A stretch of DNA of 4,932 bases from the IMG/VR virus record IMGVR_UViG_2541047757_000003; one strand, written 5' to 3'. The notes under the pieces were generated by a model that did no database searches, was not told where the DNA came from, and worked only from the letters and a program-made list of their open reading frames with translations. The position numbers and the translations under genes are program-made. The stretch is from a virus. Lineage: Duplodnaviria; Heunggongvirae; Uroviricota; Caudoviricetes. Positions 129-4,735 of this stretch are shown one piece after another (the first letter of the stretch is position 1; every line of letters starts with the position of its first letter).

Positions 129-722
129 CTATTTGTCCCGGTTGGCTAAGGGATGACACAATTTATTCTTTGTCGCTGATGAGGGGAATTTTTTATAGAG
201 CGTGGACAGACCAATATCAAAAATCAGCGCCACACGTTGACGAGATTCCCCCGCAGCCAGCAACCGTCCGACCTGCTCCCACTCACCCGCAGTGAGTTTC
301 GGTCGTCCGCCACCAATACGACCTTTGGCTCTGGCCGCTTCCAGTCCGGCGCGTGTCCGCTCGACAATGAGTTCTCGCTCCATTTCAGCCAGGGCACCCA
401 TCACATGAAAGAAAAAACGCCCCATCGGCGTGCTGGTATCAATAGCATCCGTCAGGCTGCGAAAATTAACGCCGCGTTCGCGCAGTTCCTCAACCAGAAT
501 GACCAGATGCCGCATACTACGCCCCAGCCTGTCCAGCTTCCAGACCACCAGAGTGTCACCTGCTGATAATGTTCTGAGCAGTTTTTTCAGTCCCGGCCTG
601 TCGGACTTCGTGCCGCTGATTTTATCCTCAAAAATCAGCTCACATCCTGCACACTCCAGCGCGTTACGCTGCAATTCCGTGTTCTGGTCATTTGTTGACA
701 CGCGTACATAGCCAATAAGCAT
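129..722 (-). CDS. Serine DNA invertase (Gin/Pin/Cin/Hin family site-specific recombinase)
   Basis: The 197-aa ORF begins MLIGYVRVSTNDQNTELQRNAL, with the catalytic serine in the VRVSTxxQ motif. It has the conserved resolvase/invertase core (LVVWKLDRLGRS, GRFFFHVMGALAEMERELIVERT) and a C-terminal helix-turn-helix (RQRVALIFDIGLSTLYKK). It closely resembles Mu Gin and e14 Pin from memory. It sits immediately next to an inverted-repeat-bounded segment carrying tail-fibre cassettes. Confidence 0.93.
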   Translation of the reverse strand: MLIGYVRVSTNDQNTELQRNALECAGCELIFEDKISGTKSDRPGLKKLLRTLSAGDTLVVWKLDRLGRSMRHLVILVEELRERGVNFRSLTDAIDTSTPMGRFFFHVMGALAEMERELIVERTRAGLEAARAKGRIGGGRPKLTAGEWEQVGRLLAAGESRQRVALIFDIGLSTLYKKFPSSATKNKLCHPLANRDK

Positions 723-749: not shown

Positions 750-1244
750 ATGATGCCAGTTAGCTGTTACCTCTGCATTTTCTTAAACGTTGGAATAGGA
801 GAAACGGGAAAATACGACATTCTGCCAGCATCAAGAGGAGGCACTGGAGCGTCAACTATAGCCGGAGCATTGATAAACTTTGGTCTGAGTGATTTAGTGA
901 CTGCCGGATTAGTACAGGTGGAATCTGGTACAGACTTTATTACTGCTAAGATTCCATTTCTGTCCGGTGGTAGAAAGCGATTCCTGATGATACATGCCAT
1001 CAAGGCGACAATGCCTGCAAATAATAACGGGTATAACCTTACTGTTACATTCCCAACTGCCTATGATAATGCACCGATACCAATTCTTGGCTCGACCGTA
1101 GGGTCGACTTCAACAACGGGTGGTACCACAGAGTCAATGAATATTTCATCAGTCACAAAATCGGGTTGCATCATTTCTTCAGCATGGCAAACATGGTCTG
1201 AGGGACCGGTATATCTTTTAACGATTGGAGGAGTTGCAGCATGA
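750..1244 (+). CDS. Alternative tail-fibre C-terminal cassette (S'v-like), promoterless and silent in this orientation
   Basis: The ORF runs into the left crossover site without a credible start or RBS; its first 14 codons cross the site. At the crossover it encodes FLNVGIGETGKYD, which parallels YLGLGEAAKRD at the crossover in H. The site cores sit in the same codon phase (positions 2-3 of codon 789-791 here, and of Leu276 in H). Its stop overlaps the next assembly gene start as ATGA. The functional cassette is about 792-1244 (150 codons). Confidence 0.7.
   Translation: MMPVSCYLCIFLNVGIGETGKYDILPASRGGTGASTIAGALINFGLSDLVTAGLVQVESGTDFITAKIPFLSGGRKRFLMIHAIKATMPANNNGYNLTVTFPTAYDNAPIPILGSTVGSTSTTGGTTESMNISSVTKSGCIISSAWQTWSEGPVYLLTIGGVAA
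778..803. repeat. Left crossover site of the invertible segment (gix/hix-like 26-bp site, central dinucleotide at 790-791)
   Basis: The plus strand reads TTTTCTTAAACG-TT-GGAATAGGAGAA. Its reverse complement, TTCTCCTATTCC-AA-CGTTTAAGAAAA, matches the right-hand site left half-site at 10 of 12 positions with the same AA core. It fits the 12-2-12 architecture of Gin/Hin sites (consensus roughly TTnTCnnAAACC-NN-GGTTTnnGAnAA) and lies about 55 bp upstream of the invertase start. Confidence 0.7.
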
Positions 1245-1627
1245 AATATTATTCACCTTCAATTAATGGATTTCCCGAACAAAAGACTGATGACAGTATT
1301 GAGATCAGTGAAGAGGTCTGGAGAATACTTCTTAGTGAAATTTACTCAGGCCGGGAGTTATTTAACGATGGCGGCGTACCCGCTACCCGTGTGCCGCAAC
1401 CTACGCAAGAACAAGTAATTGCAGCCGCAGAAAATGAGCGCCAACGATTGCTGAATTATGCTGATACCGTAATGCTCGACTGGCGTACAGAATTGATGCT
1501 GGGTGAAATCAGCGACGCCAACAGGGCTAAATTGTCGGCGTGGCTGGCTTATAAAAATCAAGTTAAGTCGGTTGATGTGACAACTGACCCTGAGCATGTT
1601 AACTGGCCTATTTCCCCGGAGGCGTAG
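1241..1627 (+). CDS. Tail-fibre assembly chaperone, alternative copy (U'-like, Tfa family)
   Basis: The 128-aa ORF ends with a motif I recognise from Mu U / P2 G / lambda Tfa-type chaperones (EQVIAAAENERQRLL ... WRTELMLGEISDANRAKLSAWLAYKNQV ... DVTTDPEHVNWPISP). Its start is coupled to the upstream fibre cassette by an ATGA overlap, and it lies inside the invertible segment. Confidence 0.8.
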   Translation: MKYYSPSINGFPEQKTDDSIEISEEVWRILLSEIYSGRELFNDGGVPATRVPQPTQEQVIAAAENERQRLLNYADTVMLDWRTELMLGEISDANRAKLSAWLAYKNQVKSVDVTTDPEHVNWPISPEA

Positions 1628-2039
1628 GCCATTCAATATCTGGCGCACCGGAAGTATCGACCAGTTCCAGTGCGTCCAGATAATCCAGCCACGAATTATA
1701 TTGCGCCAGTTCCTCTCCTTTCAGACGACCAATCGCCGCTTTACCAGGCCATTGCTTACTGTTTATGTATTCGTTGACCTGATTAATCAATTGCTGCTTT
1801 TCCAGTTCGGCTGCGGCAATTTGTTCCTCATGAGTTGGCGGTGGAATATCAATCCATGCTGGCATTCCGTCGATGACACATCTGTATTTTCCTTCTGGTG
1901 CTTCCTTCATAAATTCGGCGGCAACAGTGTCGTCAATTTCGATTCCATCATCGGGCCATTCGCCGGATTCCTGATAAGCGATTTTAAGCTCCACAGGGAA
2001 AAACGCATTTTTCTCGGCACTGAAAATATATTTCTGCAT
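1608..2039 (-). CDS. Tail-fibre assembly chaperone, currently expressed copy (U-like, Tfa family)
   Basis: The 143-aa ORF sits directly downstream of H on the same strand, with a 2-bp gap and an AGGA-type RBS. It carries the same C-terminal Tfa-like motif (EEQIAAAELEKQQLI ... DTSGAPDIEWPTPP). Its 3' end converges on and overlaps the U'-like gene by 20 bp. Confidence 0.8.
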   Translation of the reverse strand: MQKYIFSAEKNAFFPVELKIAYQESGEWPDDGIEIDDTVAAEFMKEAPEGKYRCVIDGMPAWIDIPPPTHEEQIAAAELEKQQLINQVNEYINSKQWPGKAAIGRLKGEELAQYNSWLDYLDALELVDTSGAPDIEWPTPPGK

Positions 2040-2041
2040 TT

Positions 2042-3226
2042 CTACCGTCCTATCGAAATATAACTGAATCTGTATTGCTGTGAGATATCACTGGTTGCCA
2101 CACGCCACGCTGAATTACTGATATGTTCAAAATTTACAGACAAAACCTGCGGGGCAGGATTCGACGGGTCTGACTGAACGGCATCAGACATAACACTGAC
2201 TGAAACCATCGGCTGATTAGGGAATGGTATAGGGAAGTGTCCACTGATAAAGCGGGTCGTGTTTCCTGAAAAAGTGCCAAACTGAACAATATATCCACCT
2301 GGTAGCCTGAACCATCCCGAACCAGAAGCGAATGCTCCCATATCAGGTATCTGATTATCTCCTGTGCCCACATCCCTTTTCGCCGCTTCTCCTAAACCAA
2401 GGTATGTGAGAAGACCAGCTACATCCTTTCCACTCAAATTAGTCAGCGTATTGTCCAGCGGTTGTTTACCTGCCAGCGCATTGTTAATGGTGGTGCTGAA
2501 TTTCGGGTCATTGTTAATGGCTGCGGCAATTTCTTTCAGTGTATCCAGCGTGGCAGGCGCACCGTTAATCAGAGCGGTAATAACCGCCTGAACAAACGCA
2601 GTGGTCGCAATCCGCGTGGTGTTATTTCCTGCAGCAGGCGTCGGCGCTTTTGGTTCTCCGGTAAATGTCGGATTATGTTTCTGTGCATACTGGGTATGAG
2701 GATCCTGTGCGGCAATATGGTTTCTCATCTGGTCATCCACATACAGCCTTAATTCCAGGACTTCATCATCCACGTATTTACGGGTCGCCAGTACCACCGA
2801 CGGGTCGATTTTCAGCGTGATAGCTTCGGTATTCGTGACAACCAGAATCATGCGGATAGTCTGGGTACGACCGCTGCCTTCCTGCAACTGCGGTTTGTAC
2901 GTTTCCGGGCAGTTCGCCACCGCAATGAGTACGCCTTCATCATCATAAAGCCCAATCTCACGGATCCAGAATCCGCCCTCGTTCTCAGGGATGATTTGCT
3001 CCGCAATAATCTGGCTCTGGTTATTCGGGTCAACACTCAGAAGATTCAGCGGTGCAATGCGTTTCTGGTTAATCAGTTTTGTCTGTGCCGGGTCTGGTGT
3101 CGGCAAGACACCATTCGCATCACCAACGGCCATTTGCGTCAGATTCAGCTTACTGCCGAGCATCGTCGCGTTAGCCAGCCGTGCTGCGCCCTGATTAGTC
3201 AGAATGGCGTAGTATTTCACTGTCAT
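2042..3226 (-). CDS. H: Tail fibre protein: constant N-terminal part (about aa 1-276) fused to the currently selected variable C-terminal tip (about aa 277-394)
   Basis: The N-terminus (MAVGDANGVLPTPDPAQT ... GGFWIREIGLYDDEGVLIAVAN ... YKPQLQEGSGRTQTIRMILVV ... YVDD) resembles the P2 gpH N-terminal domain from memory. The start overlaps the stop of gene I as ATGA. The right crossover site lies within the coding sequence at 2387-2412. Confidence 0.88.
   Translation of the reverse strand: MTVKYYAILTNQGAARLANATMLGSKLNLTQMAVGDANGVLPTPDPAQTKLINQKRIAPLNLLSVDPNNQSQIIAEQIIPENEGGFWIREIGLYDDEGVLIAVANCPETYKPQLQEGSGRTQTIRMILVVTNTEAITLKIDPSVVLATRKYVDDEVLELRLYVDDQMRNHIAAQDPHTQYAQKHNPTFTGEPKAPTPAAGNNTTRIATTAFVQAVITALINGAPATLDTLKEIAAAINNDPKFSTTINNALAGKQPLDNTLTNLSGKDVAGLLTYLGLGEAAKRDVGTGDNQIPDMGAFASGSGWFRLPGGYIVQFGTFSGNTTRFISGHFPIPFPNQPMVSVSVMSDAVQSDPSNPAPQVLSVNFEHISNSAWRVATSDISQQYRFSYISIGR
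2387..2412. repeat. Right crossover site of the invertible segment (gix/hix-like 26-bp site, central AA at 2399-2400), embedded in H
   Basis: The plus strand reads TTCTCCTAAACC-AA-GGTATGTGAGAA. The left half-site is a good match to Gin/Hin half-sites (TTCTTGAAAACC or TTATCCAAAACC type). It is in inverted orientation relative to the site at 778-803. Confidence 0.72.
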
Positions 3227-3834
3227 GCGTTTACTCTCAGGTTATCAATTAAATGAATGGCCGAGGCCGGGAAATAATCCCCTCCGACAATAATGGCCTC
3301 CGGGGTGTAGGGATAAACCGTCAGGGCGTCGCCGTGATAGCATCCCGCACCGGCAAAAATGTTGCCGGTTGTACTTAAACTGATAGCCAGTCCCGTCAGA
3401 TGGCGGCTTGCAGGTTTTGCATCAGCAACGAGACGCTCCAGCTCCTGATACATTTCCTCGGTAATACCCTGCTCAAGCACGCCAACAACGATGCGGAACG
3501 TCCCCGGCTCCTCGTTGAGCTGCCACCACTCCCTCACCTCAATCAGATAGCCGAGCGGCTCCACCACACGGCGAATCGCACCAATAGTGCCCTTATGGCA
3601 GTGAATGAAATACGCATCGCGGATAACAGCGCGTTTGGTCGCTTCCGGCCATTTATCATCCCACCTGTCGACCGAAAATGACCACGCCAGCCACGGCAGC
3701 AGATTTGCCGGGCAGGTGTCCGGGTTCCACAGCTCACGAATACTGACCGGCGTTTTTTCAATTTCCGCACAGGCTTTTGCGGCGGCAACTTCAAGCGGTG
3801 ATGAGCCGGTCGGCAGCAGGCGCGAATCACTCAT
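3223..3834 (-). CDS. I: Baseplate assembly protein I (P2 gpI-like)
   Basis: The 203-aa ORF sits between J and H on the same strand in the conserved P2 order. Its start overlaps the end of J by 8 bp and its stop overlaps the H start. The true start could be an internal Met; the P2 gpI I recall is somewhat shorter. Confidence 0.75.
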   Translation of the reverse strand: MSDSRLLPTGSSPLEVAAAKACAEIEKTPVSIRELWNPDTCPANLLPWLAWSFSVDRWDDKWPEATKRAVIRDAYFIHCHKGTIGAIRRVVEPLGYLIEVREWWQLNEEPGTFRIVVGVLEQGITEEMYQELERLVADAKPASRHLTGLAISLSTTGNIFAGAGCYHGDALTVYPYTPEAIIVGGDYFPASAIHLIDNLRVNA

Positions 3835-4735
3835 CCGAGCCTCCGGTCACGACGCGGTATTCAGTACAGAAAGACGCCTGCGTACTGTTGAGCACGATGT
3901 CAGCCAGAGGTGCAGTCAGTTCGACACGCTGCACGCCTTCCACATGCAAAGCGGCATAAATGGCAGACAGACGGATGTCGCGCCCAAGCCGGTGCTGTGC
4001 CGTGATGTACGCTTCCAGTTTTTTCACGGCAGCAGCGCGGATGGGTTCGCTTTCGGGACCTGGGTAAAGGTAAAGCGTGGCGTTTATCTGATATTCAACA
4101 ATGGCGGCAGACTGCACGGTCACGCGGTCGGCCACCGGCCTGACATCCTCGCCATTAAGGGCGTTACGCACCACGGCCAGCAGGTCTTCGGATGCGACAC
4201 CGTTATTTTCACGTGACAGCACGGAGATGGTGACGCAGGCCGGAGACGGACTGGTGACAGAGATATCTGCGACGCGCCCGTCGGCACTGCGACCATGATA
4301 CTGATAGGCACCCACCGACCCGGCAACGCTTAAACCTTCAAACGCCTGCTGAATACGCAGCCGATAATCGGTGTCAGATTCCATCACTGCCGGTGTCGGC
4401 GGGATGGTCGAATCGTCTGCCGGGGTGATAGTCAGGCGCGTGGTGTTGTAATTGGCACCAATCACATCAAGGTCATTACCGGCGGCACAGGCCAGCATTA
4501 CCGCCCGTGCGGCCTCATTCACACGCTGACGCCAGATAAGCTCACGATAAGCATTTTCCTCCAGCAGTTTGACGAGAGGCTCGGATTCCAGCGTCAGGGT
4601 ACGGGCAACCGCCTCCTGCTGGTCTTCCGGGTAAAGGGAAATCAGTGTCGCCTTGCGTTCGGCAAGAATGGTTTCAAAGTCCAGCTCCTCAACCACATCC
4701 GGTGCGGGTAGCTGGTTCAGGTCGATAATCGGCAT
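3827..4735 (-). CDS. J: Baseplate assembly protein J (P2 gpJ-like)
   Basis: The 302-aa ORF begins MPIIDLNQLPAPDVVEELDFETILAERKA, which matches the length and N-terminus of P2 gpJ as I recall them. It is flanked by W upstream and I downstream. Confidence 0.85.
   Translation of the reverse strand: MPIIDLNQLPAPDVVEELDFETILAERKATLISLYPEDQQEAVARTLTLESEPLVKLLEENAYRELIWRQRVNEAARAVMLACAAGNDLDVIGANYNTTRLTITPADDSTIPPTPAVMESDTDYRLRIQQAFEGLSVAGSVGAYQYHGRSADGRVADISVTSPSPACVTISVLSRENNGVASEDLLAVVRNALNGEDVRPVADRVTVQSAAIVEYQINATLYLYPGPESEPIRAAAVKKLEAYITAQHRLGRDIRLSAIYAALHVEGVQRVELTAPLADIVLNSTQASFCTEYRVVTGGSDE

Follow-up and report, generated by a model that had tools for sequence, protein, structure and literature searches.

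A Gin/Cin/Pin-type invertible segment very probably swaps the tail-fibre tip of a P2-like Escherichia coli prophage in frame, by the full mechanism described for this recombinase family. The segment lies in a stretch of 4,932 nucleotides from IMG/VR virus record IMGVR_UViG_2541047757_000003 (the window), in which two 26-bp crossover sites within coding sequence flank a pair of alternative fibre C-termini, close to a gene for a serine DNA invertase. Near-identical prophages in nature carry the segment in both orientations, joined at the predicted junctions. At this locus a 26-bp recombination site is at the same time coding sequence, which would let a single promoter and a single N-terminal fibre shaft serve two receptor-binding tips. 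Systems of this classical kind have been characterised by experiment and their mechanism is already known; the present one is unremarkable among them. The features that carry this reading are as follows, with amino acids abbreviated as aa and nucleotides as nt.

778–803, plus strand: left crossover site, 26 bp, TTTTCTTAAACG TT GGAATAGGAGAA, core TT at 790–791
2387–2412, minus strand: right crossover site, 26 bp, inside H, TTCTCACATACC TT GGTTTAGGAGAA as reverse complement (the H strand), core at 2399–2400
792–2398, no strand assigned: invertible segment of 1607 bp (core to core), which near-identical natural prophages carry in either orientation
2042–3226, minus strand: fibre gene H, 394 aa, with a Phage_tail_fib N-terminus and a gp53-like C-terminus
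2399–3226, minus strand: constant part of H, residues 1–276, Pfam Phage_tail_fib N-terminal (2.1e-62)
2042–2398, minus strand: cassette A, the currently expressed variable C-terminus of H, residues 277–394, Pfam Gp53-like_C (5.2e-08, residues 307–394)
1608–2039, minus strand: tail-fibre assembly chaperone of cassette A, 143 aa, currently expressed, Pfam Caudo_TAP (1.1e-34), 53% identical to e14 TfaP
792–1244, plus strand: cassette B, the silent alternative fibre C-terminus, 150 aa, an open frame with a weak Gp53-like_C match (E = 0.0014)
1241–1627, plus strand: tail-fibre assembly chaperone of cassette B, 128 aa, Pfam Caudo_TAP (1.1e-19)
129–722, minus strand: serine DNA invertase of the Gin/Pin family, 197 aa, Pfam Resolvase (2.9e-52) and HTH_7

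Crossover sites in codon phase and their natural junctions

The two sites agree at 19 of 26 positions and stand in inverted orientation with cores TT/AA, forming the pair of imperfectly palindromic 26-bp inverted sites with identical 2-bp cores that marks Hin/Gin/Cin/Pin systems. We scanned the window with a 17-nt pattern taken from the right site, allowing up to 3 mismatches. The pattern matched exactly two places, namely both sites (chance expectation 0.01; at least two matches in 0 of 200 shuffles), and revealed no third crossover site in the window. A 26-bp family pattern, TTCTCNNAAACCNNGGTTTNNGAGAA, at up to 3 mismatches, matched only the right site.

Both cores occupy the same codon phase. 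The right core (2399–2400) forms positions 2–3 of codon 276 of H (CTT, Leu; window 2401–2399), the left core (790–791) forms positions 2–3 of a GTT codon (Val, 789–791) in a plus-strand frame open from 750 to 1244, and the sites encode the peptides YLGLGE and NVGIGE, as the initial annotation had it. Because the segment takes in all but the first base of the junction codon, residue 276 is Leu in both states, and H 1–276 is joined in frame to either cassette. One site thus sits at the constant/variable junction of the fibre and the other starts a promoterless alternative C-terminus in equal phase, as in other invertible tail-fibre modules. Also as in such modules, each alternative C-terminus is followed by its own Caudo_TAP chaperone, the two units being convergent; the stop codon of cassette B is overlapped by the ATG of its chaperone (ATGA, 1241–1244). 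The two cassettes are unrelated to each other apart from the site-encoded GxGE, which fits recognition of two different receptors.

The annotation had proposed that inversion would yield one uninterrupted fibre frame, to be checked in silico and in prophages of opposite orientation, and both checks bore this out. Replacing 792–2398 by its reverse complement produced a single uninterrupted open reading frame (ORF) of 426 aa (276 + 150), and the reciprocal junction gave an ORF of 132 aa. Homologous prophages in the opposite orientation were found on contigs gathered through the identical invertase protein, and they are colinear with the in-silico product. Four loci (L009, L011, L012 and L014) carry that orientation and align without gaps to the in-silico inverted window, and three (L010, L013 and L015) carry the orientation of the window itself. 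L012 (GCA_000457655.1) differs from the inverted window by 4 mismatches in 4932 nt, with no gap and with every mismatch far from the junctions, and L014 is 100% identical to it over 2395 nt. Cassette B is fused to the constant part of H as a 426-aa protein in L009, L011, L012 and L018–L021. The exact 426-aa protein is also deposited at NCBI, labelled as a ‘phage tail protein’ of E. coli (EQR08627.1, ELD2929053.1, EPC6784917.1 and HEI3184019.1), as does the exact 394-aa form, with the same constant part in both. An identical invertase accompanies both forms under adjacent accessions (ELD2929050/ELD2929053 for the inverted state, ELX9581936/37/40 for the current one).

The natural junctions, ...ACATACCTTGGAATAGGAGAAACG... 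and ...TTAAACGTTGGTTTAGGAGAAGCG..., are exactly those predicted. Because the sites differ directly on either side of TTGG (790–793 / 2397–2400), the exchange point is confined to these four bases, which include the proposed 2-bp core. Across 27 E. coli prophage loci, all combinations of outer and inner half-sites occur and the join is always TT|GG, with both cassettes seen on the H-side outer half and on the invertase-side outer half. A junction search of complete E. coli genomes returned the inverted type in 2 (93% identity; this search gave L001) and the current type in 45. The segment inverts with exchange at the core, on the basis of natural variation rather than experiment. The second orientation is not an artefact of assembly, since each state is represented by many independent assemblies, including the complete chromosome CP055806.1.

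Partial cassette-B proteins of 143–152 aa sit on contigs of 1.4–1.7 kb, and among 51 index blocks there are 15 whose longest contig with the tfa' gene stays under 2 kb. Short cassette-B/tfa' contigs look as expected if the sequenced culture held the 1.6-kb segment in both orientations; tfa repeats in other prophages are a possible alternative cause of the contig breaks, as L007, L008 and L015 end within tfa rather than at a site.

These results bear mainly on annotation. The database entries ‘164-aa hypothetical protein’ and ‘132-aa gp53-like protein’ correspond to the halves of a single switch that are not expressed, and a single gene in its two states accounts for the ‘phage tail proteins’ of 394 aa and 426 aa. 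Apart from correct annotation the locus has little significance, the principle having already been demonstrated for E. coli P2-like prophages.

Likeness to Mu, P1, e14 and P2-like phages

That a recombination site can also be coding sequence has been known from Mu, P1 and e14 since the 1980s; the idea of ‘gene splicing by inversion’ dates from studies of Mu G and e14 P in 1982–85. The in-frame fibre swap of the initial annotation stands, but the phase match that it singled out is not special to this locus: Mu S, P1 S and e14 StfP/StfE share with the window both the phase of the core and a site-encoded x-L-G-L-x-E. Phase matching is therefore an inherited property of the family and belongs to the classical account of such switches.

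Among the closest known systems is the P segment of e14 with PinE (E. coli K-12, stfP-tfaP / tfaE-stfE), whose invertase is 86% identical to that of the window (86.2% to PinE). The order of parts is the same: an expressed fibre with its chaperone, a convergent chaperone with a silent fibre C-terminus, a site, about 55 bp and the invertase. The expressed junctions are near-identical (CTCTCGAAAACC TT GGTTTGGGAGAA in e14, TTCTCACATACC TT GGTTTAGGAGAA in the window), as are the silent ones (TTTTCATAAACG TT and TTTTCTTAAACG TT), and the left site of the window closely resembles the pix site beside pinE (TTTTCATAAACG TT GGTTTGGGAGAA). The stfP site encodes ENLGLGE and the stfE site INVGLGE, both with cores at codon positions 2–3, so that e14 shares the L-G-L-G-E coding as well as an ATG-led hydrophobic leader at the silent junction. 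Inversion within both coding regions of e14 gives chimeric ORFs, as shown experimentally (PMC4272514, PMC12529663), and a 2025 paper describes inversion in stfP and stfE as yielding two complete chimeric genes (PMC12529663). Unlike the window, whose P2-type tail module runs J, I, H and then sheath FI, e14 is a defective lambdoid element; the window cassettes are just 23–27% identical to StfP/StfE, and the constant N-terminus of StfP has 96 residues, against 276 for the P2-type H.

The G segment of Mu with Gin (S-U / U'-S') is another. Its invertase is 78.5% identical to that of the window, gin lies downstream in the same orientation, and the Mu record annotates a constant N-terminal and a variable C-terminal part of S, each variable part with its own chaperone. 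The gix site in S (TTATCCAAAACC TC GGTTTACAGGAA) encodes IQNLGLQE, with the core TC at positions 2–3 of a Leu codon. In contrast to the window, the Mu segment measures 3 kb rather than 1.6 kb, its core reads TC and not TT, its two sites are exact inverted repeats of each other where those of the window match at 19 of 26 positions, and its silent junction, read from sequence, lacks an in-frame ATG leader. The cassettes are unrelated in sequence, and we found no convincing match of the window cassettes to Mu S or S'.

Similar comparisons hold for the C segment of P1 with Cin. The cixR site in S encodes IQYLGLRE, its core TT forms positions 2–3 of Leu454, and the P1 record, like that of Mu, explicitly annotates constant and variable parts of S. 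It also annotates an enhancer in the 5' end of cin, to which the homologous stretch of the window is 79% identical. The P1 segment is 4.2 kb long, unlike that of the window; cin is found on the opposite side, its 3' end adjoining cixL, and S has a much larger constant part (453 residues).

Among P2-like phages, Escherichia phage pro483 (NC_028943, Peduovirus) matches the window at 96% identity over 73% of its length, with J, I, H, tfa, convergent tfa', a silent fibre C-terminus, an annotated DNA invertase and sheath in the same arrangement, but with different variable cassettes. Whole-genome sequencing and PCR by Goldberg et al. revealed coexisting orientations of P2-like prophages in EPEC E2348/69, through which one protein acquires alternative carboxyl termini (PMC4272514). 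One P2-like locus of that strain has three sites and four variants, whereas the window has two sites only.

Several relatives document exchange or decay of the module. In E. coli XH989 (L002), homology to the window stops at 1615/1616, in the chaperone overlap, and at 803/804, the edge of the left site; the silent cassette has been swapped as a unit for an e14-like TfaE/Stf pair. The same segment, with identical tfa' and the same inner half-sites, sits on longer H proteins of 528 and 468 aa in L020, L022, L025 and L026, where the outer half-sites are slightly different (TTCTTGATTACC, TTCTCGCATACC). The invertible segment evidently moves as a module between fibre shafts. L004, L005 and L024 carry a prophage remnant (about 5983–6570 in L004) from which the invertase and the left site have been deleted, and in which cassette B is cut to 124 aa and lies next to an Ogr/Delta gene. 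In L022 (1883–2482) the invertase is split into fragments of 130 aa and 60 aa. Prophages of these two types would be locked in one orientation.

Probable recombination mechanism and competing explanations

The 197-aa product of 129–722 has the make-up of a small serine recombinase, with an N-terminal Ser9/10 nucleophile and a C-terminal helix-turn-helix. Its catalytic Ser9 is present (YVRVSTNDQ), it aligns over residues 1–182 with the Mu Gin structure 3UJ3 (E = 1.5e-92), and its EWEQVGRLL matches EWEQAGRLL of Gin. This EQxGRLL stretch is the Fis-contact region; in Hin, the Fis-contact residues Gln151, Arg154 and Leu155 are kept in DNA invertases and not in resolvases (PMC3798978). A candidate enhancer lies in the 5' end of the gene:

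633–704, minus strand: putative recombinational (Fis) enhancer, nt 19–90 of the invertase gene, homologous to the P1 ‘enhancer of Cin-mediated C-segment inversion’ (cin nt 19–90)

Homology is suggestive of an enhancer at 633–704, which is identical to the annotated P1 Cin enhancer at 57 of 72 positions, somewhat above the 142 of 210 for the next 210 nt; because the stretch also codes for protein its conservation alone proves nothing. A scan for Fis sites, defined as G-N13-C with an AT-rich centre, found 15-mers centred on nt 29 and nt 78 of both the window gene and Mu gin, the one at nt 29 being listed in e14 pinE as well. A strong Fis-like 15-mer at gene nt 101, GAGGATAAAATCAGC, was dropped as an enhancer candidate since the P1 record places the Cin enhancer at nt 19–90. 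This 15-mer also occurs in Mu gin, outside the stretch homologous to the P1 enhancer. The invertase gene further contains a 12-nt exact direct repeat, TCAAAAATCAGC, at 217–228 and 628–639, and a 14-nt inverted repeat around GCTGATTTT at 220–233 and 610–623, one copy of these repeats overlapping the 15-mer at nt 101.

In characterised members of the family, invertase dimers bind the two 26-bp sites and join a Fis-bound enhancer in an invertasome; all four strands are then cut through phosphoserine links, one dimer pair rotates by 180 degrees and the strands are religated (PMC3798978, PMC3575834). By the same route, dimers of the window invertase would bind both sites, Fis on the enhancer in the 5' end of the gene would activate them, and both sites would be cut with a 2-bp stagger at the TT/AA cores. 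A 180-degree turn of half the tetramer followed by religation would flip 792–2398. H 1–276 would then carry either cassette A (118 residues, gp53-like) for a total of 394 aa or cassette B (150 residues) for 426 aa, and each cassette would bring its own downstream chaperone into the transcript from the late promoter upstream. The predicted outcome is one promoter with two receptor-binding tips and, presumably, two host ranges. In this scheme the sites, their codon phase, the open recombinant frame and the two natural orientations with the predicted junctions are direct observations. What we infer from the family is that this invertase is the catalyst, that it depends on Fis and the enhancer, that the stagger is 2 bp and that the host ranges differ.

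Some points weigh against this reading. The two orientations come from different isolates, so that ongoing switching in this strain is presumptive. The left site is degenerate, with 4 mismatches to the family pattern and an inner half of GGAAT, not GGTTT. The enhancer was placed solely through homology to the annotated P1 stretch, and its Fis-like 15-mers are 49 bp apart as we counted them, against 48 bp in the literature.

Such a degenerate left site raises the question of whether the switch is a fossil, the orientations seen in isolates being past events and the present invertase/site pair inactive. The mismatches to the family pattern and the existence of decayed relatives, by deletion in L004, L005 and L024 and by a split invertase in L022, are what such a history might look like. 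Yet the invertase ORF of the window is intact, catalytic serine included, and opposite orientations in prophages just 4 single-nucleotide polymorphisms apart over 4.9 kb imply recent switching. The outer half of the left site is found joined to both cassettes in many loci, and the e14 site beside pinE, which has the same outer half (TTTTCATAAACG), inverts experimentally (PMC4272514, PMC12529663). We therefore regard a dead switch as very improbable.

Less credible still, to the point of being negligible, is RecA-dependent homologous recombination between short inverted repeats, with the neighbouring recombinase as an incidental presence. Inversions of that kind are known in E. coli (cited in PMC4272514). 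Here, however, the longest exact run common to both sites is 8 nt (TAGGAGAA), the pair escaped a repeat finder run with a 9-nt seed, and the exchange point is always the same 4 nt. The sites instead agree with gix, cix and pix in sequence, length and core position, and a Gin/Pin orthologue lies 55 bp from one of them, arranged as in Mu and e14. A shufflon, which would require the tyrosine recombinase Rci and more than two sfx-type repeats, was ruled out by the serine-type recombinase and the presence of two sites only. Site-specific inversion by the Gin/Pin-type invertase thus remains the reading that we prefer.

The silent-junction reading frame and the P2-type setting

The plus-strand frame that runs into cassette B does not begin at the crossover site:

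750–791, plus strand: ATG-led leader of 14 codons, MMPVSCYLCIFLNV, the start of ORF 750–1244, which also covers the upstream region of the invertase on the other strand

The leader is hydrophobic and homologous to the start of e14 stfE, MPFACYFFIFINV. With an ATG at 750 and 13–14 hydrophobic codons conserved with stfE, translation of the ‘silent’ tip by itself becomes conceivable, as a 164-aa protein now and a 132-aa gp53-like protein after the flip. The switch would then toggle a phenotype of the lysogen (receptor masking or superinfection exclusion) in addition to the host range of the virion. We hold this to be improbable. For StfE2, the equivalent protein of e14, a block to T2 adsorption has been reported (PMC12529663). 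A promoter scan detected no sigma-70-like promoter upstream of the silent-junction ORF, and near 723–800, on both strands, it returned nothing for the invertase or for that ORF.

After inversion the leader would head the 132-aa gp53-like ORF, which belongs to a protein cluster of 653 members. A terminator-like hairpin with a T-run (AACTGGCATCATCCCCGGTT TTTATTCAGG) lies at 742–761 on the minus strand, between the left site and the start codon of the invertase, and the 55-bp spacer around it is partly conserved with Mu and e14. At the other end of the silent unit, the convergent chaperone genes share 20 nt at their 3' ends (1608–1627).

As a whole, the window represents the tail module of a P2-like (Peduovirus-type) prophage of E. 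coli, with Pfam Baseplate_J, Tail_P2_I and Phage_tail_fib present. It is base-for-base part of contig KE699863.1 of assembly GCA_000457635.1. Three genes provide the context of the switch:

3827–4735, minus strand: baseplate J, Pfam Baseplate_J
3223–3834, minus strand: tail protein I, Pfam Tail_P2_I (I and J together span 3223–4735)
1–69: start of the sheath gene, beyond the invertase, read from the sequence and the source contigs

Source contigs flank the window with GPW_gp25, sheath, tube and other P2 tail genes. Together with the Pfam matches and the identity to pro483, these flanking genes give the P2-like order W-J-I-H-G followed by sheath FI. The second chaperone, the second fibre tip and the recombinase form a unit between G and FI of that order.

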